This document shows, in pieces, positions 5,879 to 38,577 of a stretch of 64,000 nucleotides of DNA. Made by a program: the position numbers and the translations under genes. Every line of letters begins with the position of its first letter. Position 1 is the stretch's first letter. The notes under the pieces were generated by a model, which did no database searches, was not told the DNA's origin, and saw only the letters and a program-made list of their open reading frames with translations. The DNA is taken from positions 72,839 to 136,838 of the IMG/VR virus record IMGVR_UViG_3300025030_001854. One strand, given 5' to 3'. Source of the stretch: a virus.

Positions 5879-6208
5879 ATGGGACTATATTTATATCAAA
5901 ATCCAAACACAAAAGAGATTATTGAAGTCGTTCAAAAAATGAATGACGAGCATACGTTTTTTAAAGATGGAATAAATTGGATAAGATTATTTACTTCTCC
6001 ATGTCCAAAAATCGGAATTAATCCATTTTCTCAAGAAGACTGGAATAATCAAACTCGTAATACCAGGGGAACTATCGGAGATTTATGGGATAAATCGGCT
6101 GAATTATCAGAAAAAAGAGCTAAAAAAAGCGGTGGTATAGACCCAATTAAACAAAAAACTGCCGAAGCTTACAGAAAGAAAACTGGTAAACCTCATCCAC
6201 ACGAATAA
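5879..6208 (+). CDS. FmdB-like small phage protein (Cys-less variant)
   Basis: MGLYLYQNPNTKEIIEVVQKMND...W.RLFTSP resembles the FmdB N-terminus. Confidence 0.45.
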   Translation: MGLYLYQNPNTKEIIEVVQKMNDEHTFFKDGINWIRLFTSPCPKIGINPFSQEDWNNQTRNTRGTIGDLWDKSAELSEKRAKKSGGIDPIKQKTAEAYRKKTGKPHPHE

Positions 6209-7047
6209 TGAAAACTCTACAGAATTGCGGAAAATTGATAGTTAAAGAATCCCCAATAGAAGGATTTGGGGTCTTTGCCACAGAAGACATTCAAAAAGGG
6301 ACTATTCTTGAAGAAGTTCCTTTTGTTACCATTCCAAATTGGGCATCCTTTGGTAAAGCGTTATATGATTTTTTATCAACATCTGAATGGATGGGTGATA
6401 AAGTAAAATATACAGAAAATTTAAGAAAAAACTTGGGTTTTAAAGACCCAGAAAAATACTATTTTAAATGGTTTCCCCAGCATCAATTAGATAAGAGTCA
6501 AATTTCTTATACAGTTCTTCCTTTAGGATTTGGATGTATTTATAATAGTTCTAATACCCAGAACAACGCGGGTTGGGTTATTAAAGATAGTCTTTTTATA
6601 TTTAAAGCAGAAAAGGATATTCAAAAAGATGAAGAGGTAAAAACGTTTTATGGATATTTTTTAAGTGAAAATGGAACAATATTTAATTGCGATAATGTAT
6701 TTAATATTGGATTAGATATCATTAACGGAACTCTTAAATTAAAAATGTTTAGATTTAGTTCTATTGAAGTTTTTGAGGCAAGTCGGGTCCATCCAACATA
6801 TATTCGTGGTCAAAAAATGTTAGCAGATTCTAAAGACGGACTTTCAATTAAAAAAATATCTTCGTCTAACTCTCCTACTGAAGACCAACAAGCAGTAGAT
6901 GTTCCAGAAGTTGCTACACTACAGGATGTATATACAAGATTATCTGAATGTAAGAACCTTCCTAGAACTTTCTCTAGAATTCATATTGAATATACTAATA
7001 GAGAAGGAGAAATAGTTAAAGACGTTTTAGTATTTAAAAATTCTTGA
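6208..7047 (+). CDS. SET-domain protein (putative lysine methyltransferase) with C-terminal extension
   Basis: VKESPIEGFGVFATEDIQKG, GCIYNSS and FKAEKDIQKDEEVKTFYG motifs. Confidence 0.8.
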   Translation: MKTLQNCGKLIVKESPIEGFGVFATEDIQKGTILEEVPFVTIPNWASFGKALYDFLSTSEWMGDKVKYTENLRKNLGFKDPEKYYFKWFPQHQLDKSQISYTVLPLGFGCIYNSSNTQNNAGWVIKDSLFIFKAEKDIQKDEEVKTFYGYFLSENGTIFNCDNVFNIGLDIINGTLKLKMFRFSSIEVFEASRVHPTYIRGQKMLADSKDGLSIKKISSSNSPTEDQQAVDVPEVATLQDVYTRLSECKNLPRTFSRIHIEYTNREGEIVKDVLVFKNS

Positions 7048-10476: not shown

Positions 10477-11100
10477 ATGATAACAAATTTAACAAAACAA
10501 AACCTCATAGATTTTGAGGAAGACATTGCTCAATGTTTTAATCAGAAGATGATTAAAGCTCCCATTCATCTTTATTCAAATAACGAAGAAGAAATGATTA
10601 ACGTTTTTCAAGAAATTCGTCCTCAAGATTGGGTTTTTTCTGCTTGGCGAAGTCATTATCAATGTTTATTAAAAGGAGTTCCCCCAGAACAATTAAAACA
10701 AGCTATTCTTGATGGAAAATCTATTTCTTTATCCTTTCCATCTTATAAGATATTCTGTTCTGCTATAGTTGGGGGCTCGGTTCCCATTGCTGTCGGAACA
10801 GCCCTAGCTATTAAAAGACAAGGATTAGATGAAAAAGTTTATTGTTTTGTGGGAGATATGACTTCTGAGACAGGTATTATGTGGGAGAGCTTAAAATATA
10901 GTATTTCTTACGATTTACCTATTGTGTTTATTGTGGAAGATAATGGACTTTCTGTATGCACTGATACAAGAAAAACTTGGAATATGGAAATCCTTACTTT
11001 TGAATATCAGCTTCCAAAGTCTTCTAAAAAATACATAAGATATTATAAATACAAAAACAAATGGCCACATGCCGGTTCTGGGTCACGAATTCAATTTTAA
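10477..11100 (+). CDS. TPP-dependent E1-alpha-like subunit (short)
   Basis: PIHL, WRSH, SAIVGG, GDM...EDN TPP-binding motif. Confidence 0.85.
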   Translation: MITNLTKQNLIDFEEDIAQCFNQKMIKAPIHLYSNNEEEMINVFQEIRPQDWVFSAWRSHYQCLLKGVPPEQLKQAILDGKSISLSFPSYKIFCSAIVGGSVPIAVGTALAIKRQGLDEKVYCFVGDMTSETGIMWESLKYSISYDLPIVFIVEDNGLSVCTDTRKTWNMEILTFEYQLPKSSKKYIRYYKYKNKWPHAGSGSRIQF

Positions 11101-11871: not shown

Positions 11872-12402
11872 ATGAGATATTTCAACGAATTAAAAAAATC
11901 AATGGAGTTTTTAGCCGATAACCCAAAAACCATATTTTTGGGGCAGGCTGTTATTTATGCTGGAACTGCGATAAGTAACACATTAAAAGATATTCCTGAA
12001 TATAAACGAATAGAATTTCCGGTAAATGAAGAATTGCAAGCTGGTGTTTCTAATGGTTTAGCTTTAGCCGGACTTATTCCTGTTAGTATATTTCCAAGAT
12101 GGAATTTCCTACTTCTTGCCACAAATCAAATAGTCAATCATCTTGATAAATTTCCTATTTTTTCTGGATATAAAACCAAGGTTATTATAAGAACAAGTAT
12201 TGGCTCTGAAAGACCATTACATCCTCAGTATCAACATGTTGGAGATTTTTCAGATGCCTTTAGATTAATGTGTCCTAACATTGAGGTTATTCGATTAGAT
12301 GAACCAGAACAGATATTTCTATCATATAAAAAGGCTCTAGAAAGAGAAGACGGAAAATCTACTATTTTAGTAGAATATGGAGATTTTTATAATGAAAAAT
12401 AA
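11872..12402 (+). CDS. TPP-dependent E1-beta/transketolase pyrimidine-binding subunit (no C-terminal domain)
   Basis: IFLGQAV, EFPVNEE, GLALAG, NQIVN, QH motifs. Confidence 0.85.
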   Translation: MRYFNELKKSMEFLADNPKTIFLGQAVIYAGTAISNTLKDIPEYKRIEFPVNEELQAGVSNGLALAGLIPVSIFPRWNFLLLATNQIVNHLDKFPIFSGYKTKVIIRTSIGSERPLHPQYQHVGDFSDAFRLMCPNIEVIRLDEPEQIFLSYKKALEREDGKSTILVEYGDFYNEK

Positions 12403-15261: not shown

Positions 15262-17046
15262 ATGAAAAAAATTAAAGTTTATTTTAATGAGTTTAACATT
15301 CCAACAGATAACACTGTTTATTTTCCCTATTCGTCAGGATTGTTATTAGCATATTGTCTTCAGGACGAAGATGTTAGACTTAATTTTGATTTTCAAGAAT
15401 TTTTGTTTCGAAGGGAACCATTATTAAATATTTTATCTAGATATGAAAATCCAGATATAGCTTGTTTTTCATCATCAATTTGGAATCATCAGTTAAACTT
15501 GGCGGTTGCGAAAGAAATTAAAAATAGATTTCCTAATTGTCTAATTATCTTTGGTGGACCACAAGTTCCATTAAACAGTAATTTTTATATTGAAAATCCC
15601 TTTATAGATATAGGAATATTTGGGGAGGGAGAAATTATATTCCGAGATTTATTAATTAAATATTTAAAAAGGGAGAATAATTTTCCCCATCATATTACAT
15701 TAAAGAATGATGTTACAACTAAAGAAATAGATGTTTTTCCGTCACCATATTCATTAGGACTATTTGACCAATTAATTAAAGATAATCAAGATATTAAATT
15801 TAAAGCAATAGTAGAAACAAATCGTTCGTGTCCATTCTCTTGTGATTTTTGTTTTTGGGGACAATCAGACTTAAATAAGAAGATTGTCTTCCATTCTCTT
15901 GAATATACAAAGCAAGAAGCCTTATGGCTTGCAAAAAATCAAGTAGAATATATCTTCTGTGCAGACGCAAATTTTGGAATGTATAAAAGAGATATTGATG
16001 TAGCCCAACTATTTTCAGATATTAAATTAGAATATGGATATCCAGATAAGTTTCGCGTTTGTTATGGGAAAAATACAACAGAAAATATATTTAATACAGC
16101 TTTAATATTATCTAAAGCTAATTTAGCTAAAACAGTAACGCTAGCGAAACAATCTAACGATAAATCTGTATTAGCCAATATTCATCGTTCGAATATTAAT
16201 ACTAAAACATTTAAACAATTACAAATAAAATATACAGAAGCGGGAATCCCTACTTATACCGAATTAATATTAGGTCTTCCAGGAGAAACATATTCTTCAT
16301 TTTTGTCTGGACTAGAAGAAACCCTAGAATCTGTTATTAATAATCAGGTATTTATTTATCATTGTCAAGTTCTTCCAAATACAGCGATGGCAGAAAAAGA
16401 TTATATTTCAAAATATGGTTTAAAAACTGTTAAAATCCCACTAGCGGAAGTTCATGGTAGTGTTCGAGATAATTCTATCGTTCAAGAATTTGAGGAAATA
16501 GTTATTGGAACTAATTCAATGTCCCAAGAAGAATGGAAAAAGTGTGCCGTTATTTCTTGGTTAGCTCAATCTTTATATGGGCTTAAAGCTGCCGAAGAAA
16601 TTATTAATTTTCTTATTAAAGAATATAAAATCAAATTTACAGATTATTTTGAATTTATCTCTAAATGCGATATGGATGAAGTAAAATTATTATGGAGAGT
16701 AGCAAACGACATTACAGATGGGGAAAGGAGATGTCAACATGATGCTAGATTTGGGTCAATATATTATGACCCAGAAGAATTTGTTTTTTTATTGTTATGC
16801 TTAAATCCTAATAAATTCTTTCAAAAATTATTTCAAATAACTGTGGGATTTTTGATGTCTAAAGGTATAGACATAAAAAGTAAGTTTGCGGAGTTATTGA
16901 CAGTTTTTTCTGTTCAACAAGATAATCTCCCTTCTCCTTACGATTATAGTTCTACTAAAGAGTTTGCTACCAAAGTAGTCTTACATGGAAGAAAAAGTAA
17001 CTCAACTAAAAAACAAAGAAATCCAATAGGATTTCAATTAATATGA
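15262..17046 (+). CDS. B12-binding radical SAM enzyme
   Basis: N-terminal cobalamin-binding domain (FSSSIWN, IIFGGPQV, GEGE) and ETNRSCPFSCDFC. Confidence 0.9.
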   Translation: MKKIKVYFNEFNIPTDNTVYFPYSSGLLLAYCLQDEDVRLNFDFQEFLFRREPLLNILSRYENPDIACFSSSIWNHQLNLAVAKEIKNRFPNCLIIFGGPQVPLNSNFYIENPFIDIGIFGEGEIIFRDLLIKYLKRENNFPHHITLKNDVTTKEIDVFPSPYSLGLFDQLIKDNQDIKFKAIVETNRSCPFSCDFCFWGQSDLNKKIVFHSLEYTKQEALWLAKNQVEYIFCADANFGMYKRDIDVAQLFSDIKLEYGYPDKFRVCYGKNTTENIFNTALILSKANLAKTVTLAKQSNDKSVLANIHRSNINTKTFKQLQIKYTEAGIPTYTELILGLPGETYSSFLSGLEETLESVINNQVFIYHCQVLPNTAMAEKDYISKYGLKTVKIPLAEVHGSVRDNSIVQEFEEIVIGTNSMSQEEWKKCAVISWLAQSLYGLKAAEEIINFLIKEYKIKFTDYFEFISKCDMDEVKLLWRVANDITDGERRCQHDARFGSIYYDPEEFVFLLLCLNPNKFFQKLFQITVGFLMSKGIDIKSKFAELLTVFSVQQDNLPSPYDYSSTKEFATKVVLHGRKSNSTKKQRNPIGFQLI

Positions 17047-17879
17047 AAAGTCCAGACGTATCTATTATTTTACCGTCTATTCGCCCAGAAAATCTGATTA
17101 AATTTTATGAATCAGCTCAAAATGCTTGTCAGAGATATTCTTTTGAAATTATAATTCCTGGTCCATATCTAATTCCAGAAGAATTAATGAAAAAAGGAAA
17201 TGTTGTATTTATTCATACTTACGCTAATCCAACTATTTGTTTTCAAATGGCGGCTCTTTTAGCTAGGGGGGAATTTATTTATAATACAACAGATGATGGA
17301 TTATTACAACCCAATGTTATTGATATTGCTGTTGACCTTCATAGAGAAGCATTGACATTCAAAGATATGATAAATATGAGGTATGATGAAGGAGTATTAG
17401 ACCCGATAACTCTTTTACCTTTAAAAGAAAATCATGAACATTTCTCTCCATATTATTGGATTGCCCATTCTCATGCTGATTTAAGATTACCGGGAATTCC
17501 CGTTAATTATAAATTATGTATGCATTTCTTTATTAAGAAGAACTATTTTCTTTGGCTTGGTGGATTTGATTGTAATTATGAATATAGCAATCATGCTTTA
17601 CACGATTTAGCTTTTAGAGTTCAATCAGATGGAGGACAAATTGTAAGTCTTCCTGTGGTTGCTTTTTATTGTTCTCATCTTCCTGGCCAGCAGGGCGACC
17701 ATGGACCAGTAAATGATGCTCAATTAGGACCAGACATTACAAGATTTAATTCTATCTACGGAAACTCAACCCTAGATATAAAACAAAGAATTAATTTAAA
17801 TTATGACGATTGGAAGAATTTTCCTAATATATGGGAAAGAAGATTTGATAAAAATAATTTGTTAGTTAATAAAATATGA
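17043..17879 (+). CDS. GT2-family glycosyltransferase
   Basis: VSIILPSIR, TTDD, LGGFD...DLAFR. Confidence 0.8.
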   Translation: MKSPDVSIILPSIRPENLIKFYESAQNACQRYSFEIIIPGPYLIPEELMKKGNVVFIHTYANPTICFQMAALLARGEFIYNTTDDGLLQPNVIDIAVDLHREALTFKDMINMRYDEGVLDPITLLPLKENHEHFSPYYWIAHSHADLRLPGIPVNYKLCMHFFIKKNYFLWLGGFDCNYEYSNHALHDLAFRVQSDGGQIVSLPVVAFYCSHLPGQQGDHGPVNDAQLGPDITRFNSIYGNSTLDIKQRINLNYDDWKNFPNIWERRFDKNNLLVNKI

Positions 17880-19384
17880 AAAACGATTTAGATATCCTAC
17901 TTATTCATCCGAATTCTGCTAAAAGAGTCTATCAAGACCTTAGTAATAATTTTTCAGCTATAGAACCCCCAATTTGGGCGTTAATGATTGCTTCTTATCT
18001 TATAAATAAAGGGTGGAATGTAGAAATACTCGACTGCGAAGCTTTAAGGTTAAATCCAAAAGAAGTATATACAATCGTTAAAAATAAATCTCCAAAAGTA
18101 ATTGGTATGGTTGTTTATGGGCAACAGCCATCAGCCTCGACACAAAATATGACAGGGGCAATCGACATTATGCATAAATTGGCTGATTTAGATATTACTC
18201 GTATCTATATTGGTCCGCACCCCTCTTCGTTACCGATAAGAACTATAGAAGACGACCCAGGAGCATTGGTTTGTCAGGGGGAAGGTCCAATTACATTGGA
18301 TATATTATTAAAACAAAAAAATCACAAAGATATTAGCGATAGGAAAAAAGTTCCTGGATTGTGGTATTTTAATTATATTTCTGGAAAGATAGAGGGAAAT
18401 TGCTCTGCTCCTTTATTACGAGACTTAGATAATGATATTCCGAATTTGCCTCTTGACCTTCTTCCTTTAGAACAGTATAGAACTTCTAATTGGCATAGTT
18501 GGACTAATGAAAATAAAACTCAACCATTTTTATCTTTATATACCAGTTTGGGATGTCCTTTTCAGTGTTCTTTTTGTATGATTAATTCTCCATTTAATAA
18601 TGGGGATAATAAAAATAATACTTTCCGCACTTGGTCGCCCGCTCATACATTAAGGATTTTAAGGGGTTTTACTGATAAGGGGGTTACTAATGTTAAAATA
18701 GCTGATGAAATGTTTGTCTTAAAACCACCCCATTTTCTTGAAATTTGTAAGGGTGTTATTGATAGCGGGATGAAATTTAATTTTTGGGCTTACGCAAGAA
18801 TAGACACCGTAAGAGAACAATATTTAGATATTCTTAAAAAAGCTGGAGTAAATTGGCTAGCACTAGGTATTGAATCTGGTAATATTAAAGTAAGGCAAGA
18901 AGTCATTAAGGGTAAATTTCAAGAATTAAATATTCATGATATTGTTTCTAAAATTCAAAATCATGGAATTTGTTCTATGAATAATTTTATATTTGGGTTA
19001 CCAACAGACACCATTGAAACAATGCAATCAACGTTAGATTTAGCTATGAACTTAAATGGCGAATATGCTAATATGTATTGTGCTATGGGTTATCCTGGAA
19101 GTCAATTACACAGAGATTTTTCTCAACATAATCCATCTGTTTTACCAGAAAACAATGGCGTCGGATGGATAGGATATTCTCAACACGCTTACGAAACGTT
19201 TAATCTTCCGACAGAAGTATTAAAAAATCATGAAATTCTTAAATTTCGTGACGAAGCGGTAATTAAATATTTTAGTAACCCATCTTATTTGGAAAAAATG
19301 ACATTAAAATTTGGACCTAATTTTAAAACAGAAATACAAAACATGTTAAATATTAGATTAAAAAGAAAAATATTAGGAGACTAA
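17876..19384 (+). CDS. B12-binding radical SAM enzyme
   Basis: PPIW, IGPHPS, GEG, TSLGCPFQCSFC, GIESG, FIFGLP. Confidence 0.9.
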   Translation: MKNDLDILLIHPNSAKRVYQDLSNNFSAIEPPIWALMIASYLINKGWNVEILDCEALRLNPKEVYTIVKNKSPKVIGMVVYGQQPSASTQNMTGAIDIMHKLADLDITRIYIGPHPSSLPIRTIEDDPGALVCQGEGPITLDILLKQKNHKDISDRKKVPGLWYFNYISGKIEGNCSAPLLRDLDNDIPNLPLDLLPLEQYRTSNWHSWTNENKTQPFLSLYTSLGCPFQCSFCMINSPFNNGDNKNNTFRTWSPAHTLRILRGFTDKGVTNVKIADEMFVLKPPHFLEICKGVIDSGMKFNFWAYARIDTVREQYLDILKKAGVNWLALGIESGNIKVRQEVIKGKFQELNIHDIVSKIQNHGICSMNNFIFGLPTDTIETMQSTLDLAMNLNGEYANMYCAMGYPGSQLHRDFSQHNPSVLPENNGVGWIGYSQHAYETFNLPTEVLKNHEILKFRDEAVIKYFSNPSYLEKMTLKFGPNFKTEIQNMLNIRLKRKILGD

Positions 19385-19386
19385 TT

Positions 19387-19965
19387 ATGTCAGAACTTAT
19401 CAAATTACATTTGGGGTGTTACCATCGGAAAATACATGGATATATTAACATAGATATCCGTCCAGAATGCTCTCCAGACCTAGTAGAAGACTGCTTCCTA
19501 TTATCTTCGTTTAAAAATAATAGTGTTGATGTTATTTATACTTGTCATATGCTTGAACATTGCAAAAGAGACGAAGTTCTTCCAATATTAATCCGCTGGA
19601 ATGAGATATTAAAACCAGGTGGTATTTTAAGGATTTCTGTCCCAGATTTTGAGGCTTTGTGTGAATATTATATTCAAACAAGAGATTTAGAAGCCATTAC
19701 AAATTTAATGTTTGGTTCCCAAAAACATGCTTATGATTTTCATTATATTGGTTTTAATGAAAAGTATTTAACTAGTTTATTAAAAGGATTAGATTTCGTA
19801 AATATCCATCGTTATGATTGGAGGGAAACAGAACATTTTTATATTGATGATTACTCTCAATGTTATTTGCCAAGTATTGAATATAAATCTAGAAGACTAA
19901 CTGATGAAATAAAAGGAAAACTAGTTAGTCTAAATATTGAAGCGGTAAAAGCTCTATCTATATGA
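19387..19965 (+). CDS. Class I SAM methyltransferase (type 11-like)
   Basis: KLHLGC, YINID, HMLEH, LKPGGILRISVPD. Confidence 0.85.
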   Translation: MSELIKLHLGCYHRKIHGYINIDIRPECSPDLVEDCFLLSSFKNNSVDVIYTCHMLEHCKRDEVLPILIRWNEILKPGGILRISVPDFEALCEYYIQTRDLEAITNLMFGSQKHAYDFHYIGFNEKYLTSLLKGLDFVNIHRYDWRETEHFYIDDYSQCYLPSIEYKSRRLTDEIKGKLVSLNIEAVKALSI

Positions 19966-20741
19966 CAAAACCAGAAATTTCAATCTTAATGCCAGCTATT
20001 CGTCCGCAGAACTGGACAAAAGTATATGAATCTATTTTGTCTTCAACAAGGCGTTCTTTTGAATTAGTTATTGTGGGACCACACCAATTACCAGAAAATC
20101 TTTTACAATATAAAAATATTAAATATGTTAGAGATTTCGGTTCTCCAGTAAGAGCATCTGCTATAGGAAGTCTTTTGTGTGAAGGAACATTTATATATCC
20201 CACTCATGCAGATGATTGTTTTTTAATTCAAGATTCTTTGGATAATAATATTGATATCCTTTCTAAATATAACGATGAACATGTAGTTGTTTGTAAGTAT
20301 TCAGAAAGCGAAAATTTATCCAGAGAAAATGATTATCAAAACGATGATTATTATAAAATTGTTAATGCTTATCCAGTAAATCCAATGGTAATTCCTAGTC
20401 ATTGGTTAATTTTTAATTCTGTTATTTGGTATAGAACAACTTTTGATAGAATTGGGGGATTTGATTGTCATTTTGAAACCTGCCCAATGGCTCATGCAGA
20501 TTTAGCTATAAGAAGTCAACACGTTGGTATTAAAGCTATTTTATCGTCTTTTCCATTATTAAAATGTGGCCATATGCCTGGAACCAGTGGCGACCATGCA
20601 CCCATACATTTTACCCAAATATTGAAAGATGACCCAAAATTTAGATTAAAATATAGCGAACCACTTGACGATTTAGTTAGTTGTATTGATAGATTAAATT
20701 GGAAAAAATATCCCAATGTTTGGAAAGAAAGATTTAATTAA
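19962..20741 (+). CDS. GT2-family glycosyltransferase, paralogue of 17043-17879
   Basis: ISILMPAIRP, HADD, IGGFD, GDHAP, W..YPNVW..RF shared with 17043-17879. Confidence 0.8.
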   Translation: MTKPEISILMPAIRPQNWTKVYESILSSTRRSFELVIVGPHQLPENLLQYKNIKYVRDFGSPVRASAIGSLLCEGTFIYPTHADDCFLIQDSLDNNIDILSKYNDEHVVVCKYSESENLSRENDYQNDDYYKIVNAYPVNPMVIPSHWLIFNSVIWYRTTFDRIGGFDCHFETCPMAHADLAIRSQHVGIKAILSSFPLLKCGHMPGTSGDHAPIHFTQILKDDPKFRLKYSEPLDDLVSCIDRLNWKKYPNVWKERFN

Positions 20742-20745
20742 AATT

Positions 20746-23103
20746 ATGGAAATCCTTATTTTAGCAGACTCTAGAGCTATGTGGCCGAGAGAATATAGTT
20801 GGCCTAATGTATTACAACAGATGCTTGGTAAAGGATATAATATCACGTCTTATATTAGCGGAATAGATAAATGGCTTGCATCTATTAATATGATGGAAGA
20901 ATTTCTTTTGGACAAATTCCCAGATAAAGTATTCGATATTATCATTATTCAAGCGGGATGGCATGAGGGAGGACCATGCTTCTGGCCCGAAGAAACGTGG
21001 AAAGAGATTATAAATACCAAAACCAGAGAATTTAACCAATCTTCTCTTATTGATAAAATAGAAAATAATGGTAAATCTAAATTTTTATATAAAGACGAAA
21101 AAGAAGAAAAATCTGTTTTTAAAACATTTAGGTCAAGAGGAAGAAATGTTATTTTTATTAATATGCATTCTGTTCGGCCACCAAACGATTTAAATAAAGA
21201 GTATGGTCTTGGAATGACTCATCAATATAAACAACTAGAAGCTAATTTTAGATTTTCTCCTGTTGATTGCGATTCTTTTTCTTTACCACAAGACAATGAA
21301 TGGATATCTAATTGTTGTTTACCTGATAGGTTGCATTATATGTTTCATGGAATTAATTATATTGCTACTTATTTAGCCAGATATATTCAACGAGCACACA
21401 AAATATTACCCAACCTATTAGCAGATTCATCTAAACACAAATCTCTTTTTGAAGAATCCAAAAGAATAGGTTCATTTATTGCAAATAATACACAGGAACG
21501 AGATAAAGTAATTTTGTGCGATGATTTGACTTCCAATTTAATTGCTGCTTTTTGGGGATGTATTCTTTATAATCGTATTCCATTGATTATACAACATCCT
21601 TCAGTTAAAGTTCATTCTTCAGAATTTCATAAAAAGTTACAAAGAATAAAAGAAATAGTAAATCCATCATTTTGTTTTTGTTCGGAAAAATATTTTTCGT
21701 CGCTTAAGACATTTTTTAACGCGGCATTTACTATAAATAATCCTCACAATGATAGATATGAATTAGATTTGATTGATTATTCTTCTGATGATGTCGCCTT
21801 TTTGCAATTATCATCAGGAACCACTGGTGACGTTAAAATATTAGAAGTAACACATAAGCAAGCAATAGAGAATGTCGAAGAATATGCTCTTATTTCTAAC
21901 ATCAATCAGTATAGTTCTATTGTTTCTTGGCTACCATTATATCACGATATGGGATTAATTACTTCGGTTATTATTCCTGTTGTTATGGATTGTTCAGTTG
22001 CATATATAGATACATTTTTATGGCTTTCTCGCCCAGTGTTAATATTAGAAATGATTGAGAAATATAAAGCTACTCATGTTTGGTGGCCGAATTTTGTTTT
22101 TTCGTTTTTGGCTAATCAAAAAGACGATATATCTAAAATAGATTTATCTTCTTTACAATTTTTAATTAGTTGTTCTGAGCTTTCATTCAATAAAGATATT
22201 AATAAATTTATTGAAAAATATAAAAATAATAAACTTAATTGTCAGATAGCTAATTGTTATGCCCTAGCGGAAAATGTATTTGCCGTCAGTCAATCTAATT
22301 CTCTATCTTCAATAACACTAGCTAATGGTTTTTCATTAACAAGTTGCGGTAGAGCTATGCAGGGGATTTCTGTTTTAATTTTAAATGATAACGAAGAAGA
22401 TATTACTGGGGAACCAGTTGTTGGTAAAATTTATATTAAAAGTAATACTATTACAACTAAGACTCTAAATAAATATGGATATTATGATACTGGAGATTTA
22501 GGATTAATATATAATGGAGAAATTTTTGTAGCTGGAAGAAATAAAGACAATTTTGTTTCTTTTGGAATTAATATTTATCCAGAATTAGTTGAAAAAAGTC
22601 TTGATGGTATCAAAGGAATTACCCCAGGAAGAATAGCTTGTATTGGAATCCAAGATAATGAACTAGGAACATGTAGAACATTTATTATTGCTGAAACAAA
22701 CGACTTATCTCTTGCTGACGTTATCTCTAAAGAAATATCTTTAACTGTTAAAAATTTATACGAAGTCTCCCCTACTGTATTTATAGAAAATCCATCGTTT
22801 TTAATCAAAACTTCCAGTGGTAAAATAAGCCGTTTTCGTTCTGGGGAAAAACTAATTAAAAAAATAGGAATATTAAATATCATTAATAAATTCTTGGCTG
22901 AAAAAAATAAACCGAGTATTAGAATAAGCGACAGATTATATACCTCTGGTTTATTGGATAGTTTGGAACTGTTTGAATTAATTCTATTCTTAGAAAAATC
23001 AGGGGTATCTTTAAATAAAGAATTATTAACCAAAGATAGTTTTCGTATTGATTTAGACAAAATTGATAATATTGATGGAATTATAGCAGTATTACCAATA
23101 TAA
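20746..23103 (+). CDS. Tri-domain SGNH-like / FAAL-like acyl-AMP ligase / acyl carrier protein fusion
   Basis: ILADSR, QAGWHE, DRLHY (SGNH); LQLSSGTTG, SWLPLYHDMGL, YALAE, DTGDLG, KTSSGK (adenylation); GLLDSLEL (ACP). Likely start ATG 20746. Confidence 0.85.
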   Translation: MEILILADSRAMWPREYSWPNVLQQMLGKGYNITSYISGIDKWLASINMMEEFLLDKFPDKVFDIIIIQAGWHEGGPCFWPEETWKEIINTKTREFNQSSLIDKIENNGKSKFLYKDEKEEKSVFKTFRSRGRNVIFINMHSVRPPNDLNKEYGLGMTHQYKQLEANFRFSPVDCDSFSLPQDNEWISNCCLPDRLHYMFHGINYIATYLARYIQRAHKILPNLLADSSKHKSLFEESKRIGSFIANNTQERDKVILCDDLTSNLIAAFWGCILYNRIPLIIQHPSVKVHSSEFHKKLQRIKEIVNPSFCFCSEKYFSSLKTFFNAAFTINNPHNDRYELDLIDYSSDDVAFLQLSSGTTGDVKILEVTHKQAIENVEEYALISNINQYSSIVSWLPLYHDMGLITSVIIPVVMDCSVAYIDTFLWLSRPVLILEMIEKYKATHVWWPNFVFSFLANQKDDISKIDLSSLQFLISCSELSFNKDINKFIEKYKNNKLNCQIANCYALAENVFAVSQSNSLSSITLANGFSLTSCGRAMQGISVLILNDNEEDITGEPVVGKIYIKSNTITTKTLNKYGYYDTGDLGLIYNGEIFVAGRNKDNFVSFGINIYPELVEKSLDGIKGITPGRIACIGIQDNELGTCRTFIIAETNDLSLADVISKEISLTVKNLYEVSPTVFIENPSFLIKTSSGKISRFRSGEKLIKKIGILNIINKFLAEKNKPSIRISDRLYTSGLLDSLELFELILFLEKSGVSLNKELLTKDSFRIDLDKIDNIDGIIAVLPI

Positions 23104-23115
23104 AAGATATGAAGT

Positions 23116-23757
23116 ATGAATGTTTTGATTTTATCTGATTCTCGTGGAACTGTCCCACAAGGAAACTCATACATAAATAAATTAATACGTCTATTACCGA
23201 ATTTTTCTTTTACTTATTTTAATATTGGTTCTCAATTTCATATTAATACCCTAAATAAACTAGAAGAGTTTGTTATTGATTTAAATAAGAAATTTGATAT
23301 ATTAATAATTCAAGTTGGAATACATGATAATGGAGTTTTGCCTTGGCCTAAAACGATATGGGAATATTATTTAAATACCAAATATAGAAGATTTGAAAAA
23401 GCTTTTTTGTATCAACGTCCACCGTTCATGAATACAAATTTGTTTTTTTATCAAAACGAACAAGAAGAAAAAGATTGTTTTAAAACGTTTAGGAAATATT
23501 GCAAAAAAATAGTTTTTTTAAGTCCTCATGGTATATATTTATCAGTTTTCGAAAATAAAGTGATTCATTTTGGAGAGGACTATAGACAACTAAACCTAAA
23601 TAATATTAATAGAATATCTAAACTGGCCGACGAAACAATTTTTCTGCCACAAGACGAAAAATTTAAATTAAAATATACTATGGATGCAGGAATTCACTAT
23701 AATGACGCTGGTCATAATTTTATCGTGAGAAAAATTAAAAAAGCATTAAAATCATGA
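23116..23757 (+). CDS. Stand-alone SGNH/GDSL-like protein, paralogue of the N-domain of the upstream fusion
   Basis: ILSDSR, QVGIHD, DAGIHY; shares FDI.IIQ.G.H, WP...W and EEK..FKTFR with the upstream N-domain. Confidence 0.75.
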   Translation: MNVLILSDSRGTVPQGNSYINKLIRLLPNFSFTYFNIGSQFHINTLNKLEEFVIDLNKKFDILIIQVGIHDNGVLPWPKTIWEYYLNTKYRRFEKAFLYQRPPFMNTNLFFYQNEQEEKDCFKTFRKYCKKIVFLSPHGIYLSVFENKVIHFGEDYRQLNLNNINRISKLADETIFLPQDEKFKLKYTMDAGIHYNDAGHNFIVRKIKKALKS

Positions 23758-24656
23758 AAAAAATACTAATAACTGGAAAAACTGGAACAGTTGGTCAGAA
23801 CTTAAACTTTGGAATAGGTTTTTCTTCTCACGAATATGATTTAAGAGATAAAGACCAATGCAACCTCTTGTTTATGTCTCATCGCCCAGATGCGGTTGTT
23901 CATTGTGCTGCAAAGGTTGGGGGATTAAAATTTCATATCGAACAAAAATATAAGTTATTCTACGATAATATTTTAATTAATACTAATGTTTTGGAAGCAT
24001 GTAAAAACATGCATGTCCCAAGAGTATTATCGTTTTTATCTTCATGTATTTTTTCAGAAGAAATAAATAGACCTTATAAAGAAGAAGATTTACATATTGG
24101 ATTTCCGGCGCAAGTCCATTATCCTTATGGATTCGCGAAAAGAATGCTAGAAATACAAAGTCGTATTTGCTATGAAGAACATGGATTAATTTATAATTGT
24201 ATTATTCCAACTAATATTTATGGCCCAAATGATGATTTTAATCTAGAAACCGGACATGTAATAGGAGTATTAATATATAAAGCTCATCAAGCGAAATTAA
24301 ATGATACCTCTTTTTCTGTTTGGGGTGATGGAGAACAAGAACGAGAATTTTTATATGTAGATGACGTGGCAAAATTAACTGAATGGGCTTTAGAATATTA
24401 TAACGATAAAGAACCATTAATCTTTTGTAATAATCAGACTATTAAAATAAAATATATTGCAACTTTAATAGCTCGTGCGTTCGGAATAGAAAATAAATTA
24501 GAGTTTGATACCACTAAACCATCTGGACAGAAAATTAGACGTTTAAGCGGAAATAAGCTATTATCATTAAATGACTTCCCATTTACGTCAATTGAAAATG
24601 GAATAGAAAAAACCATTGAATGGTATTTAAATAATTATCCTAATATCAGAAAATAA
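23754..24656 (+). CDS. fcl: GDP-L-fucose synthase/ColC-like epimerase-reductase
   Basis: HCAAKVGG, LSSCIF, YGFAKR, PTNIYGPNDDF, WGDG..REFLYVDD. Confidence 0.85.
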   Translation: MKKILITGKTGTVGQNLNFGIGFSSHEYDLRDKDQCNLLFMSHRPDAVVHCAAKVGGLKFHIEQKYKLFYDNILINTNVLEACKNMHVPRVLSFLSSCIFSEEINRPYKEEDLHIGFPAQVHYPYGFAKRMLEIQSRICYEEHGLIYNCIIPTNIYGPNDDFNLETGHVIGVLIYKAHQAKLNDTSFSVWGDGEQEREFLYVDDVAKLTEWALEYYNDKEPLIFCNNQTIKIKYIATLIARAFGIENKLEFDTTKPSGQKIRRLSGNKLLSLNDFPFTSIENGIEKTIEWYLNNYPNIRK

Positions 24657-24657
24657 T

Positions 24658-25836
24658 ATGAATCAAATTAATCATCCATTAATGGCGGAAAATATTGACG
24701 AACAAGATATTCAATGTATTCAAGAATTTCTCTCTCAAAGACCTATACCGAAACTTACTAATGGCCCAAAAGTATTAGAATTTGAAAAAGAATGGTCTAA
24801 GTGGCTTGGGGTGAAATACAGCTTATTTGTTAATTCTGGAAGTTCAGCAAATGAGTTAACAATGTTAGCTATTAAATATCTTTATGGGGTTGGAGAGGTT
24901 ATTGTTCCTCCGTTAACGTGGGTCAGCGATATTTCTGCGGTTATTCATGCGAATATGAAGCCCGTTTTTTGTGATATTAATTTTGGAAATCTTTCTTTTG
25001 ACGAGCAAAAACTTTTTAAATTAATTACCCCTTCTACCAAAGCTATTTTCCTAACTCATGTTTTGGGTATAAACGGACTATCTCAACGGATTTTAGATAT
25101 ATGTAAAGAAAACGATATTTTATTAATAGAAGATGTATGTGAAAGTCATGGAACAACATTTAAGAATAAAAAATGTGGTTCTTTTGGATTTGCTAGTAAT
25201 TTTAGTTTTTATTTTGCTCATCATATGTCCACCATTGAGGGAGGAATGGTTTGTACTAATAATCGTAAATTCTATGAAGTATTAAGGTGTTTGCGTTCCC
25301 ATGGGATGTTAAGGGAATCAACACATGAAGTATTTAAAAAACAAATACTAAAAGAAAATCCTACTCTTAATCAAGACTTTGTATTCATTGCTCCATCTCA
25401 TAATTTTAGAAGTACAGAAATTAATGCAGTATTAGGATTATCTCAACTTAAAAAATTAGACTCAAATAATAAACTAAGACAAGAAAACTTTAAATACTTT
25501 TATGATGGTTTAAGACCAGATTTATATCATAAAGAGTTAAATTTACAAGGACAATGTAATTATGCTTTTATTGTTATCCTAAGAAATGGAAGTTTTAAAT
25601 TAAGAGATAAGATAGAAAAAACATTAAATAAAAATGGTATAGAATTTAGAAGGGGACTTTCTGGCGGCGGGAGTCAATTAAAACAACCATATTTAAAATC
25701 TATCGTTAAAATAAACGAGGAAGATTTTCCCCGAATGGAATTTATCCATCATTTTTCATGGTATATCGGAAATTATCCTTCTTTAACTAAAGAAAAAATA
25801 GACAATCTACTTAATATTCTCAATAATATTAAGTGA
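24658..25836 (+). CDS. DegT-family PLP enzyme, ColD-like GDP-4-keto-6-deoxymannose 3-dehydratase
   Basis: VNSGSSAN, EDVCESHG, FSFYFAHHMSTIEGG (His at the position of the Schiff-base Lys), LRSHG. Confidence 0.75.
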   Translation: MNQINHPLMAENIDEQDIQCIQEFLSQRPIPKLTNGPKVLEFEKEWSKWLGVKYSLFVNSGSSANELTMLAIKYLYGVGEVIVPPLTWVSDISAVIHANMKPVFCDINFGNLSFDEQKLFKLITPSTKAIFLTHVLGINGLSQRILDICKENDILLIEDVCESHGTTFKNKKCGSFGFASNFSFYFAHHMSTIEGGMVCTNNRKFYEVLRCLRSHGMLRESTHEVFKKQILKENPTLNQDFVFIAPSHNFRSTEINAVLGLSQLKKLDSNNKLRQENFKYFYDGLRPDLYHKELNLQGQCNYAFIVILRNGSFKLRDKIEKTLNKNGIEFRRGLSGGGSQLKQPYLKSIVKINEEDFPRMEFIHHFSWYIGNYPSLTKEKIDNLLNILNNIK

Positions 25837-26736: not shown

Positions 26737-27969
26737 ATGGAAAAAACAGTTATTATTACGGGTGTAAGTGGTCAGGATGGGTCATATATGGCAGAATATT
26801 GTCTTAATTTGGGACATAGAGTAATTGGTATGGTTAGACGAACCTCTCAGATGAATGATAAAAATTACGGTCATTTATTAAATAATCCCTTATTTAAGGT
26901 GGAAAGGGGAGATTTAACAGACAGTTCTTCTCTTGATAACATAGTGTCAAAATATAGGCCAGATTATTTTATTAATTTAGCGGCTCAATCTTTTGTAGCA
27001 GACAGTTGGACTATCCCAGAAGAGACATTTATGGTCGGGGCAGTTGGAGTCTTAAAATGTTTAGAAGCTATTAGAAAATATGCTCCTTTATGTCGTTTTT
27101 ATAATGCTGGTTCCTCAGAAGAGTTTGGAGACGTTCTATTCTCCCCACAAGACGAAACTCATCCCATGCGGCCAAGGTCGCCCTACGGGGCAGCTAAGTG
27201 TGCCGCTAGGCATCTGGTCAAAGTCTATAGAGAATCTTATGGTTTGTATGCTGTCCAAGGCTATCTTTTTAATCACGAAAGCGAAAGAAGGGGTTCTCAA
27301 TTCGTCACTCGAAAAATAACGCAAGGGGTTGCTCGTATTAAAAAAGCATTACTAAATAATGAACCTTTTAAACCAATCGAACTTGGAAATGTTTATACTA
27401 AAAGGGATTGGTCACACGCTGAAGATTTCATGGATGGTGTCTGGAGAATGCTAAATCAAGACAGATATAATATTGAACTTAATGACGAATTAAAATATGT
27501 AATTGGTGATAAAAAAACCGTATGGATATATTTAATTAAAAACCTTAAAGAATATGTTTTAGCTTCTGGAGAAACTCATACTATTGAAGAATTTGTTACT
27601 TTGGCTTTTAAACATGCGGGAATAGATGCTTTATGGGTAAATGGAACAACTGTCGAAGATTGTTTCAAAGGAATATCTTTTGACCCATTAAAAAGTAACT
27701 GCGGCATTCGTCAACCAAATGGGGTATATCCGTTTTTAGTTAATATTAGTAAAGAATTTTATCGACCCAACGAAGTAGAACTTTTACTCGGAAATCCAAA
27801 TAAAGCAAAATCCGAATTAGGATGGAAGCCAAAAATTTCATTTGACTCATTAGTAAAACGCATGGTATCATGGGACTTATATGAAGCAGGACTCCAACCA
27901 CAAAGAAATAATACAAAGCAAGAAAAAAGCTCCCAGGAAACTCAGCAATCAACAAAAATTAAGCAGTAA
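26737..27969 (+). CDS. gmd: GDP-mannose 4,6-dehydratase
   Basis: ITGVSGQDGSY, NLAAQSFV, SSEEFG, PRSPYGAAK, FNHES.RRG..FVTRKI, RDW.HAED, RP.EV.LLLG. Confidence 0.93.
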   Translation: MEKTVIITGVSGQDGSYMAEYCLNLGHRVIGMVRRTSQMNDKNYGHLLNNPLFKVERGDLTDSSSLDNIVSKYRPDYFINLAAQSFVADSWTIPEETFMVGAVGVLKCLEAIRKYAPLCRFYNAGSSEEFGDVLFSPQDETHPMRPRSPYGAAKCAARHLVKVYRESYGLYAVQGYLFNHESERRGSQFVTRKITQGVARIKKALLNNEPFKPIELGNVYTKRDWSHAEDFMDGVWRMLNQDRYNIELNDELKYVIGDKKTVWIYLIKNLKEYVLASGETHTIEEFVTLAFKHAGIDALWVNGTTVEDCFKGISFDPLKSNCGIRQPNGVYPFLVNISKEFYRPNEVELLLGNPNKAKSELGWKPKISFDSLVKRMVSWDLYEAGLQPQRNNTKQEKSSQETQQSTKIKQ

Positions 27970-36013: not shown

Positions 36014-38577
36014 ATGAATTTATAAACGATTTTGAATCAATGGAGGTTCCCATTCTTGGGGTTCGACTTCCAGAATTCGCTATTGAAGAGAAATATTTAA
36101 AAGCAGTTGGTTTAAAATTAGGAACATCTAATTATGATTTTCTTCGAGCTTTATGTATTGAGGGGTTTAAGAAACTAAAAATATCTAAATCTAACCCAAA
36201 TTATCAAATTTATGGAGATAGAGTTAAACACGAACTTGGAATTCTTTCCGAATTAGGATTTGTTGATTACCTATTATTAGTATGGGATGTCATTAATTAT
36301 TGTAAAGAAAATGATATTCCGACTGGTTTGGGTCGAGGAAGCGCGGCAGGAAGTCTTGTCCTTTATCTTATTGGTGTCACTAAAATAGACCCTATTAAAT
36401 ACGGACTCTATTTTGAAAGATTCGTGTCTAAAATTAGAGCTAAAAAACAAATCTTTGACGGAATTACCTATTTAGACGGTTCGTTAATGTGCGATGTGGA
36501 TTTGGATATCTGCTACTATAATCGTCCAAAAGTATTAGCTTATTTGGATAAGAAATTTGCCGGAAAAACATCTAAGATTCTTACATTTAATACTTTATCA
36601 GCTAAATTGGTTATTAAAGAGGTCGGTAAGATTCTAGGTGGAGTTCCAGAAGAAGAAATGACTCATGTTACAAGTATGATTCCTAAACAGCATGGAATCT
36701 TGGAGGATTTAGATGTTGCCTATGAAAAAGTGGGAGAATTTAAAGAATGGTGTGATACTCATAGTCTTGTTTATTCTGTAGCTTTAAAATTAAAAGACCT
36801 TATTAAAAATAAGGGGGTTCATCCATCAGGAATTATGATTACTCATGGAAACCTACTAGATTCTTGCCCCACAGAACTTTCTTCAGAAAAGGAAATTGTT
36901 TCTTCCTATGACATGAACTGGGTGTCATTATTTTCTGTTAAGTTAGATGCTTTGGGTTTACGTGGAGTGTCGGTCGTAGATGATATATGTAAACAATTAG
37001 GAATTAAGGTCGAAGACATAGATTTAAATGACCCAATTATATATCAGAGCCTACAAAGTTTGAAATACCCACAAGGTCTATTCCAATTAGAGGCTGACCT
37101 ATGCTTTAAAACAACCCAAAAAGTTAAACCAAAGAATATGCAAGAATTAAGTGCTATTCTTGCTGTCGCCCGTCCTGGTGCGATGCAATTTATTGACAAG
37201 CTCGCTCTGTATACAACAACTGGAACTATTGACAGTATTCATCCATTTTTTGAAGATATTTTAATAGAAACTGGTGGGGTTGCCCTATATCAGGAGCAGT
37301 TAATGAAAATGGCTAATAAAATTGGTTTCACCTTGGATGAAGCCGAAATTTTAAGGAGAATTGTAGGAAAAAAGAAAGTTGACGAAGTTAAAAAATGGAA
37401 AAGTAAAATTGAAGAAAAAGTAAAAGAGCAAGGACTTGATAAAGAAATAGGAGAAATCTTATGGAAGATTTTGGAAGATTCGGCAAGTTATTCATTCAAC
37501 AAGAGCCATAGTGTAAGTTATGCTGCATTGGCTGCTTTAACAGTCTACTTAAAATTCAAATATCCAACAAATTTCTTCTTGTCTCTTCTTTCTATGAGTC
37601 AACATGAACCTGACCCCATAGGAGAAATAGCTAAAATCCATAAAGAAATGCAATATTTTAATATTAAATTGCTTTCTCCAAGCTTATCTTATTCCCAAAT
37701 TAAATTTACTATTGAAGGAAAAGATATTCGTTTCGGTCTTTCTTCTATTAAGGGCATTGCCGAAAAAACAATTGAAAAACTTAATAATTTTAAACGAGAA
37801 CATGCCAATAAATTTGAATTATTTGAATCTGCGAAAGAAGCCGGTCTAACAATCGGAGTCCTCTCCGCTCTTATTCAGGCTGGAACACTGTCTAAATTTG
37901 GCGATAAAAGAGCATATTTAGTCTATGAGGCTCAATTATGGAACCTTCTTAAACCGAAAGAAAAACAAAACGCTATTTCTTTAGCTTTAAAGTATGATTA
38001 TAAATTAATTCCCATTGTTAAAGCGTTAAATCAGGTTCATAAAGATGAAAAAGGACGACCTTTAATCAAGGATTCAAGAATGGCAACTATAAAAAAGGGT
38101 TCAGAAAGATATAAAAATATTTTTGAACTAAATGATGTATGTGCTGATTTCGCTAACTGGTGGTATGAAAAACGATTATTGGGTTATGTTTCCGACAAGC
38201 ACTTAATTGATATATTCTTATCCAAAAAAAGTTCATTATCCCCCATTAATGAAATATTAGAATTGCCAGAGGATTCTTACGTTGATTTTATTGGTCATAT
38301 TGATGAAAATCCTACGCTTGGAACTTCTAGGACAGCTAGAAAAAGCAAATATGCCAAATATCAAATCAGTGACGAAACAGGGACCGTTAAAGTCATGATT
38401 TTTAATGATTCTCTTGAAGAATGTAAAACTTTAAATGGAGTTCTTCCTAAACAAGAAGATATCGTAATTGTAAGCGGAAGGAAAAAGGGGGATGATACTA
38501 TTTTCGCCCGCTTAATTGCTGTTCAACAAAATGTAATTTATACAAAACTTTCAGAATTAAAAGACCCAACAGTTTAA
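36004..38577 (+). CDS. dnaE: DNA polymerase III alpha catalytic subunit lacking PHP domain
   Basis: GRGSAAGSLV, FERF, DVDLD, HPSG, KLDALGL, YQEQ, FNKSH, IRFGLSSIKG, C-terminal OB fold. Confidence 0.93.
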   Translation: MQVNEFINDFESMEVPILGVRLPEFAIEEKYLKAVGLKLGTSNYDFLRALCIEGFKKLKISKSNPNYQIYGDRVKHELGILSELGFVDYLLLVWDVINYCKENDIPTGLGRGSAAGSLVLYLIGVTKIDPIKYGLYFERFVSKIRAKKQIFDGITYLDGSLMCDVDLDICYYNRPKVLAYLDKKFAGKTSKILTFNTLSAKLVIKEVGKILGGVPEEEMTHVTSMIPKQHGILEDLDVAYEKVGEFKEWCDTHSLVYSVALKLKDLIKNKGVHPSGIMITHGNLLDSCPTELSSEKEIVSSYDMNWVSLFSVKLDALGLRGVSVVDDICKQLGIKVEDIDLNDPIIYQSLQSLKYPQGLFQLEADLCFKTTQKVKPKNMQELSAILAVARPGAMQFIDKLALYTTTGTIDSIHPFFEDILIETGGVALYQEQLMKMANKIGFTLDEAEILRRIVGKKKVDEVKKWKSKIEEKVKEQGLDKEIGEILWKILEDSASYSFNKSHSVSYAALAALTVYLKFKYPTNFFLSLLSMSQHEPDPIGEIAKIHKEMQYFNIKLLSPSLSYSQIKFTIEGKDIRFGLSSIKGIAEKTIEKLNNFKREHANKFELFESAKEAGLTIGVLSALIQAGTLSKFGDKRAYLVYEAQLWNLLKPKEKQNAISLALKYDYKLIPIVKALNQVHKDEKGRPLIKDSRMATIKKGSERYKNIFELNDVCADFANWWYEKRLLGYVSDKHLIDIFLSKKSSLSPINEILELPEDSYVDFIGHIDENPTLGTSRTARKSKYAKYQISDETGTVKVMIFNDSLEECKTLNGVLPKQEDIVIVSGRKKGDDTIFARLIAVQQNVIYTKLSELKDPTV

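Follow-up and report, generated by a model that had tools for sequence, protein, structure and literature searches.

Can a phage attach an acyl group to a sugar with an activating ligase, a carrier protein and an SGNH enzyme, and do so in the cytoplasm? The question is raised by two adjacent genes in a 64,000-nucleotide stretch of viral DNA (hereafter the window), positions 72,839 to 136,838 of the IMG/VR virus record IMGVR_UViG_3300025030_001854. The window forms the right-hand 64 kb of that record, which has 136,838 bases and an estimated completeness of 71%. Its open reading frame (ORF) A encodes a single polypeptide with an SGNH-like domain, an adenylation domain resembling the fatty acyl-AMP ligases (FAALs), plus a C-terminal carrier domain, and ORF B encodes a stand-alone paralogue of the SGNH-like domain. 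We consider it evenly balanced whether ORF A is a self-contained, cytoplasmic, carrier-protein-dependent acyltransferase that would esterify a sugar made by the surrounding gene cluster, with ORF B serving as a second or an editing SGNH enzyme.

Domains of ORF A and ORF B

The features of the two genes in the window are as follows.

20746..23103, + strand: ORF A, tri-domain protein with SGNH-like, FAAL-like adenylation and carrier parts, 785 aa (the longest ORF, 20716..23103, has 795 aa)
20746..21399, + strand: N-terminal divergent domain of predicted SGNH fold, residues 11-228
21433..22860, + strand: FAAL-like adenylation (ANL) domain, residues ~240-715
22861..23100, + strand: predicted C-terminal carrier-protein domain, residues 716-795, with the putative phosphopantetheine site Ser749
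23116..23757, + strand: ORF B, stand-alone paralogue of predicted SGNH fold, 213 aa, with Ser9 and His194

Residues of ORF A are counted from 20716. Translation probably starts at 20746, the position already chosen in the first-pass annotation, because the first residue of the homologues corresponds to Met11 and the preceding gene runs to 20741. The N-terminal domain carries ADSR at 20764-20775 (Ser19 codon at 20770-20772), QAGWHEG at 20950-20970 and DRLH, spanning Asp204 to His207, at 21325-21336. The ligase motifs SSGTTG, SWLPLYHDMGL and KTSSGK lie at 21811-21828, 21925-21957 and 22807-22824, and the carrier motif LLDSLE is found at 22951-22968, with the codon of Ser749 at 22960-22962. Each SGNH unit has its nucleophilic serine at residue 9, counting the N-terminal domain from Met11, and lacks both a signal peptide and a membrane segment; the single hydrophobic peak of ORF A falls inside the ligase core.

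The ligase was identified by direct model matches. ORF A matches Pfam AMP-binding with an E-value of 1.9e-29 and 103 bits (cut-off 29.9), and all the ANL core motifs are present: A3 (SSGTTG..K), A5 (YALAEN), A7 (YDTGDLG), the A8 hinge (GRNKD) and A10 (KTSSGK), each invariant or nearly so across 23 homologues. The top NCBIfam rows are FAAL and long-chain ligase models (E-values of 1e-58 and 1.7e-53), with all rows far below their curated cut-offs (181.8 bits against 600 for the FAAL-named NF006624, and 198.9 against 572 for NF005850). FAAL and acyl-CoA-ligase models lead the best 25 NCBIfam rows, which include no D-alanine ligase model, and the amino-acid adenylation model TIGR01733 stands low in the ranking (2.9e-17), making an acid without an alpha-amino group the more likely substrate. 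Among solved structures, the best relative is the adenylation-carrier (A-PCP) didomain of McyG (4r0m, 3.5e-38), followed by the FAALs 3pbk from E. coli and 3kxw from Legionella, with FadD23, FadD32 and the CoA ligases ranking behind these three. Aligned with 3pbk, ORF A has 8 residues (535-542) where the E. coli chain has 29 (356-384), at about the place that we take to be the site of the FAAL-specific insertion. FAALs are described as having a specific insertion in the N-terminal subdomain (PMC8460268, PMC12820801). We call the domain FAAL-like and not a proven FAAL. The adenylation-carrier module of the first-pass annotation stands, and its label "NRPS-like" (after the nonribosomal peptide synthetases) proved loose: the ligase appears to be of the FAAL type and not an amino-acid adenylation domain.

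The carrier assignment draws on structure prediction. The last 80 residues of ORF A are conserved in five other fusion proteins, and PF00550 matches three of six homologous tails, with a best E-value of 6e-4. An AlphaFold2 model of the tail, built from nine sequences, has a pLDDT of 91.0 and the topology of a carrier, with helices at 2-14, 34-46, 53-56 and 65-76 that correspond to helix I, a long loop, helix II beginning at Ser749, a short helix III and helix IV. Ser749, at tail position 34 the first residue of the second helix, is invariant in all nine fused and free homologues. A Foldseek search with the model gave no match at E<=0.001 (best 0.042), and nearly all of the listed rows were acyl carrier proteins (ACPs), peptidyl carrier proteins, DltC or aminoacyl carriers. 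In a wide search independent of Foldseek, 42 of the 50 best chains were, by title, carriers or carrier entries of nonribosomal peptide or polyketide synthases (NRPS/PKS), and the other eight comprised six respiratory-complex chains, one vague entry and one dehydrogenase; the McyG carrier domain aligned with a Z of 6.0 and DltC structures were among the matches. A profile of six tails run against PDB sequences gave only sub-significant carrier matches (E 0.07-1). Its top match, polyubiquitin, was rejected as an artefact of nine weak repeats, each with an i-Evalue of ~25. As modelled, the C-terminal 80 residues are a carrier-protein domain with Ser749 as the putative phosphopantetheine site.

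ORF B and the N-terminal domain of ORF A share 33% identity over 221 columns (E 3e-33), and the hidden Markov model (HMM) of their family covers residues 11-228 of ORF A with an E-value of 2.3e-71. No Pfam or NCBIfam family, GDSL models included, matches either unit. Among 1.84 billion cluster representatives, ORF B found 30 proteins at E<=0.001, three of which were set aside as multi-stretch, low-complexity matches. The AlphaFold2 model of ORF B, built from 43 sequences, has a pLDDT of 91.5 and retrieved 66 PDB matches with Foldseek at E<=0.001 (top E 2.2e-6), led by the acetyl-xylan esterase Axe2, PatB, GDSL esterases and thioesterase I. The best 50 rows of the wide search, with Z from 15.8 to 11.5, were all GDSL/SGNH-type esterases, lipases and acyltransferases, headed by 7ddy (Z 15.8, root-mean-square deviation [rmsd] 3.0, 171 aligned) and including the catalytic domain of OatA (14.4, rmsd 2.2) and PatB (13.9); a protein-atlas search agreed with the SGNH fold. 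ORF B is, according to its model, a three-layer alpha/beta/alpha protein of the SGNH fold, and its 33% identity to the N-terminal domain of ORF A suggests the same fold there. Within the family, D-S-R of block I is present in 41 of the 43 members, the remaining two being N-terminally short, and block V has its His in 43 of 43 and its Asp in 42 of 43, represented in ORF A by D204 and H207. The three-domain polypeptide and the stand-alone paralogue described at first pass are upheld by these results, the ligase through Pfam and NCBIfam, the carrier through the tail model, and the N-terminal domain through its paralogy to the modelled ORF B.

With ORF B as query, a viral structure library gave SGNH domains (E 4.5e-5 and weaker) from tail spikes, lysins and "hydrolases", and a weak PHROG tail-fiber row (E 7e-4) covers residues 172-212 only. 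Both would fit a reading in which ORF B, in the manner of tail-spike SGNH domains, modifies a receptor as a virion-associated esterase (deacetylase) and has no relation to the chemistry of ORF A. We hold this to be very improbable, as the 213-residue protein has no fibre or spike domain and is a paralogue of the N-terminal domain of ORF A, and as its gene starts 12 bases past the end of ORF A and runs with its stop codon into the start of the gene that follows, itself a sugar gene.

Relatives of the module

The three parts of ORF A occur in fused and in split forms. On a 45.8-kb viral contig (L003), a 711-aa SGNH-ligase protein that lacks the tail is followed directly by a gene for an 83-aa homologue of the tail, one relative of which is named acyl carrier protein by its source. 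On a second viral contig of 39.9 kb (L004), the SGNH-like part is a gene product of 203 aa (family HMM E 1.7e-36) and the ligase a separate one of 477 aa, encoded next to each other and to a carrier-like frame. The occurrence of the same three parts as one protein or as neighbours supports their forming one functional module. Among the best 120 homologues of ORF A, the N-terminal domain is found in 29 and the carrier tail in 8.

In the collections searched, the SGNH-ligase(-carrier) family is rare and is found only on uncultivated viral or metagenome contigs. GenBank phages (50,697 records) yielded 13 matching records, none of which covers the N-terminal domain, in line with the first-pass remark that the architecture was not familiar from phages, and the DNA of ORF A and ORF B had no match there. 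Apart from the record of the window, IMG/VR contains the fusion on one contig (L003) and the split form on one (L004). The viral scan with the N-terminal domain alignment returned the L003 contig only, and the corresponding metagenome scan gave one confirmed locus, L091, among the matches listed. At least 600 relatives of the ligase are present in the GTDB species genomes; in the best 80 matches, representing 79 loci, no alignment extended before residue 183 and no locus encoded an SGNH protein of the phage type. We found no paper on the SGNH-ligase-carrier architecture, and the main text of a 2026 survey of FAAL diversity mentions neither SGNH, GDSL nor viruses (PMC12820801).

The design is nevertheless not unique in its logic, judging by domain matches in other relatives. 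Two uncharacterised metagenome/NCBI proteins, P0051 (856 aa) and P0044 (891 aa), combine a ligase and a carrier with a hexapeptide acyltransferase on one polypeptide, much as ORF A combines them with an SGNH domain; the Pfam order of P0051 is AMP-binding, PP-binding and hexapeptide acyltransferase. These fusions have 32% identity to ORF A (E ~1e-64) and lie in the same neighbourhood of ligase clades, but their acyltransferase is a C-terminal left-handed beta-helix, whereas the SGNH domain of ORF A is N-terminal. A third protein, P0112 (936 aa), has AMP-binding and PP-binding domains followed by a C-terminal extension of ~300 aa with LGSSTS ... DAYH motifs, and thus differs from ORF A in domain order, with the putative SGNH part at the C terminus and of another lineage. 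This extension matched neither the phage-family HMM nor an HMM of bacterial operon GDSL proteins, and had no meaningful match to PDB sequences, leaving a DltD-like nature unconfirmed.

Several bacterial relatives of the ligase lie in operons that resemble the Dlt system. At three bacterial loci, Pfam annotates a consecutive series of genes: MBOAT, one or two GDSL-like proteins with weak matches, a PP-binding protein and the ligase. With crude HMMs built from these three annotated loci, we counted MBOAT in 34, GDSL-like proteins in 28 and carrier-like proteins in 31 of the 79 bacterial loci, and all three in 19. Operons of MBOAT, GDSL-like proteins (one to five copies), a carrier and a FAAL-type ligase are present in metagenome-assembled genomes of Chloroflexota and Acidobacteriota, at L018 3414-9539, L056 4993-9584, L072 4477-9870 and 16 further loci. 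From their gene content, these operons look to be Dlt-like systems whose ligase is of the FAAL type and not DltA-like. The analogy to Dlt drawn at first pass gains an evolutionary basis from them, as the nearest bacterial relatives of the ligase often sit in such operons.

A tree of the ligase domain (FastTree, unrooted, 68 rows, several of odd composition) placed all 40 phage-type rows in a single clade with an SH-like support of 100 and a branch length of 1.19, within which fused and unfused forms are interleaved. A group of weak support (83) joins this clade to 13 bacterial ligases that are MBOAT-linked and to the two hexapeptide fusions. The bacterial rows represent 26 of the 79 loci, hand-picked for their context classes (a 27th, L075, yielded no ORF), and P0027, P0035 and P0080 were excluded as partial.

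A sugar cluster around the module

ORF A and ORF B lie within a run of abutting, co-directional sugar-pathway genes that spans ~7.8-28 kb of the window. The neighbours relevant to the argument are listed below.

10477-11100 and 11872-12402: split pair resembling the alpha and beta parts of thiamine pyrophosphate-dependent E1, within the sugar cluster
15262-17046 and 17876-19384, + strand: two B12-binding radical SAM enzymes, one a KedN5-like C-methyltransferase (6.9e-62)
17043-17879, + strand: GT-A-like paralogue, 31% identity to the copy at 19962-20741
19387-19965, + strand: methyltransferase; the genes in 15262..19965 abut and share one direction
19962..20741, + strand: GT-A-like protein of ~260 aa directly upstream of ORF A, no confident Pfam match
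23754..24656, + strand: Fcl/ColC-like epimerase-reductase of the SDR family (NF047922, E 6.7e-54, below its cut-off)
24658..25836, + strand: ColD-type 3-dehydratase dependent on pyridoxal or pyridoxamine phosphate, matching 2gms/3gr9 over the full length (E 6e-55); not an aminotransferase
26737..27969, + strand: GDP-mannose 4,6-dehydratase (GMD), context gene

By their matches, the GMD, ColD-type and Fcl-like genes correspond to those of a colitose-type path to a 3,6-dideoxyhexose, encoded here by a phage. In the ColD-type protein, His replaces the catalytic Lys, at the site altered in the H188N mutant entry 3b8x. It is the only DegT-family gene on the record, on which no sugar aminotransferase was found. 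As this deoxysugar path yields no amine, O-acylation is favoured, and an ester is also the linkage made by the known SGNH acyltransferases. In Vibrio cholerae O1, rfbK and rfbL provide a carrier and an AMP-ligase for the tetronate N-acyl group of perosamine, in an O-antigen cluster that starts from GDP-mannose. The acyl group is there amide-linked to an amino sugar, and no SGNH protein is known to be involved. N-acylation of an amino sugar by analogy to this system was set aside, the sole DegT-family gene being the ColD-type dehydratase.

The context of the module is partly conserved. In each of the three loci with upstream DNA, namely the window, L003 (8402-9205) and L091 (8885-9679), the gene immediately before the SGNH-ligase gene encodes a homologue of the GT-A-like protein (41-43% identity), and L003 has a ColD-type and a PfkB-like gene near the module. 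This bears on the possibility that the acceptor is not a glycan at all but, for example, a protein of the virion, a lipid, a small molecule or a modified base in DNA, with the sugar genes as mere neighbours. Such an acceptor would suit the usual role of FAAL-carrier pairs, described as the supply of lipid or polyketide products (PMC8460268), and the L004 trio does sit among genes for an M23 peptidase, an exonuclease and a methyltransferase. Arguing the other way, the window, L003 and L091 all show a tight, overlapping operon that includes sugar genes, and no ketosynthase (KS), condensation (C) or other downstream assembly-line domain was found; we regard a non-glycan acceptor as unlikely.

The conserved partners also weigh on a salvage scheme, in which an SGNH lipase or esterase would free a fatty or some other acid from a host lipid or an acylated polymer and the ligase would capture it on the carrier to be used again. 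E. coli Aas similarly couples an acyltransferase to an acyl-ACP synthetase. The order of SGNH, ligase and carrier is that of such a pathway, an Aas-type model (NF006386) is among the weaker NCBIfam rows of ORF A (1.6e-16), and many of the SGNH relatives are lipases. The scheme does not account for the final transfer, however, except if ORF B carries it out, and the conserved partners are sugar-pathway and not lipid genes, so that salvage appears to us distinctly unlikely, more so than an acceptor outside the glycan.

The genes directly upstream bear on another possible role of the SGNH units. If these were thioesterases, the ligase and carrier would hold an acid for tailoring by neighbouring enzymes, such as the two B12 radical SAM methylases and the methyltransferase, the SGNH units would release it or proofread, and another enzyme would do the attaching. 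E. coli thioesterase I/TesA structures (1jrl and 1ivn) match ORF B with a TMt of up to 0.70, B12 radical SAM and methyltransferase genes stand immediately upstream of the module, and an editing enzyme might have an altered acid residue such as that of ORF B. Yet activation followed by hydrolysis would be futile without an acyltransferase, and the cluster showed no further acyltransferase family; the relatives replace the SGNH domain with a bona fide acyltransferase fold, and the radical SAM genes of L003 are not next to the module. We give this arrangement a low probability, comparable to that of the non-glycan acceptor.

The B12 radical SAM and E1-like genes are an observation in their own right, pointing to tailoring as in antibiotic deoxysugar pathways and unusual for a phage. 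The record as a whole is that of a large phage of lytic type, with rIIA/rIIB, a UvsX-like recombinase, a clamp loader, sigma factors and many HNH endonucleases, replication genes for a DnaE-type polymerase, a DnaB helicase and a primase, and nucleotide genes for thymidylate synthase, dCMP deaminase and ribonucleotide reductase.

Four other features of the record stand apart from the module. The N-domain of a MazZ-like dATP/dGTP diphosphohydrolase (PF18909, 8.9e-23) lies at 2555-2977 of the window; no PurZ/adenylosuccinate-synthetase homologue was found on the 136.8-kb record, so that a 2-aminoadenine (Z-base) genome is not indicated there. A SET-domain protein (PF00856, 6.1e-9), in a phage, is encoded at 6208-7047. 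Two adjacent ORFs lie on the - strand at 38574-43325 (1583 aa) and 43328-48070 (1580 aa); they are unlike each other and match neither Pfam nor PHROG. To the left of the window, ~27 kb of the record (~31,000-58,000) contain at least eight HNH/endonuclease VII-type genes, several of them phrog_10822.

A proposed acylation route

We regard as established which domains are present, which catalytic residues are conserved, that the module occurs both split and fused, and which genes surround it; each chemical step, the acid and the acceptor we infer. In the route that we propose for ORF A as an acyltransferase, the FAAL-like domain would adenylate a carboxylic acid without an alpha-amino group, and the acid would be loaded on ORF A's own carrier, in thioester linkage to a phosphopantetheine arm at Ser749 that a phosphopantetheinyl transferase (PPTase) of the host would have to provide. 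The N-terminal SGNH domain would then accept the acyl group on Ser19 and pass it to a hydroxyl of a sugar made by the cluster, which would be a colitose-type deoxysugar, either nucleotide-activated or already transferred. ORF B may act in trans on the same carrier, acylating a second position or serving as an editing esterase. The route would follow the logic of Dlt minus the membrane-crossing steps of MBOAT and DltX, although no search was aimed at DltX-like microproteins.

A cytoplasmic location is indicated by the lack of a signal peptide or membrane segment, by the nucleophile standing at residue 9 and by the lack of MBOAT and AT3 proteins: neither PF03062 (MBOAT) nor PF01757 (AT3) has a match at E<=1 across the 136.8-kb record. 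The first-pass annotation had seen no MBOAT or PPTase in the window, and the absence of both extends to the whole record. O-acylation in the cytoplasm is, on the sequence evidence, the best reading of the module.

The known systems provide both likenesses and differences. SGNH proteins are described as the terminal acyl-enzyme transferases of known polymer acylation systems, with Dlt supplied from a carrier protein (PMC12148441). The same 2025 paper distinguishes two major systems of bacterial polymer acylation, MBOAT plus SGNH and AT3-SGNH, and among those that it sets out has a carrier protein in Dlt only; the Dlt mechanism is given as a relay from the carrier to MBOAT, a Tyr shuttle, the SGNH Ser and finally the polymer (PMC12148441). 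The phage module has in common with Dlt (DltA, DltC, DltB, DltX and DltD, acting in the D-alanylation of teichoic acid) the logic of ligase, carrier and SGNH protein. It differs from Dlt in having no detected MBOAT or membrane anchor and in an SGNH unit that is fused to the ligase, duplicated and predicted to be cytoplasmic, whereas DltD is membrane-anchored and extracytoplasmic; its ligase is of the FAAL type and that of Dlt of the DltA type. In PatA/PatB and AlgI/AlgJ/AlgX (MBOAT-SGNH) and in OatA and OafA (AT3-SGNH), the SGNH part is likewise the terminal transferase, and OatA and PatB are among the best structural matches of ORF B. The MBOAT-SGNH and AT3-SGNH systems, as presented in that paper, work outside the cytoplasm and rely on acyl-CoA and on a membrane protein (PMC12148441), whereas a carrier thioester is the donor that we propose for the phage module. 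FAALs are reported to pass acyl groups to holo-ACP and not to CoA (PMC8460268). McyG has the same order of adenylation domain and carrier as ORF A; compared with McyG and with the FAAL-ACP pairs of lipopeptide and polyketide pathways, ORF A has no downstream KS or C domain and has an SGNH domain in front.

Several results weigh against ORF A being such an acyltransferase. The carrier domain is weakly marked: PF00550 has no match in ORF A, either in the Pfam scan of the protein or in a PF00550 scan of the record, and the structural Z of the tail, at most 7.7, is modest. The catalytic residues of the SGNH units are not canonical throughout. Block III has its Gly in 42 of 43 family members, but its oxyanion Asn site is His in 34, ORF A and ORF B among them, Asn in 5 and another residue in 4. 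ORF B is the sole member of the 43 with Ala (A191) at the Asp site of DxxH, with an Asp (D190) one residue upstream; the first-pass description of ORF B as a copy of the same SGNH domain holds for its paralogy but not for an intact DxxH motif. SGNH folds are, moreover, mostly hydrolases, E. coli thioesterase I is among the matches, and the fold alone would be no proof of a transferase. None of the three operon partners was detected by the crude HMMs in 35 of the 79 bacterial loci. An hhalign comparison of the phage SGNH family with the GDSL proteins of the bacterial operons gave a probability of 0.3%, with no specific kinship, and the operon-GDSL HMM matched none of the 155 collected proteins, which leaves the ligase and the carrier as the link to Dlt. 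No PPTase gene was found on the record or on two related viral records (completeness 71%, 25% and 9%), so that activity would depend on the host. Finally, the acceptor could lie outside the glycan cluster.

Taken further, the route suggests a form of membrane-independent, carrier-protein glycan acylation in large uncultivated phages, a proposal that we put forward tentatively and judge somewhat less probable than its negation. In the cytoplasm, an SGNH-ligase-carrier protein paired with a dedicated GT-A-like glycosyltransferase would esterify a phage-made sugar of the 3,6-dideoxyhexose type with an unusual acid, which the adjacent B12 radical SAM methylases might first have tailored while it was bound to the carrier, and the acylated glycan would be displayed on the virion or the infected cell. 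Passing the acyl group directly from the carrier to the SGNH Ser, this would be a third SGNH route beside MBOAT-SGNH and AT3-SGNH.

If true, the passing of an acyl group straight from a carrier to the SGNH domain fused with it would demonstrate that export is the sole task of the membrane components in the known systems, and ORF A would offer a soluble one-protein system for studying how SGNH enzymes choose between transfer and hydrolysis. It might also give a compact enzyme tool for the ATP-driven, regioselective acylation of sugars. For the phages themselves, the route would add acylated deoxysugars like those of secondary metabolites to their repertoire, and would bear on virion glycosylation, on the remodelling of the host surface and on the masking of receptors.

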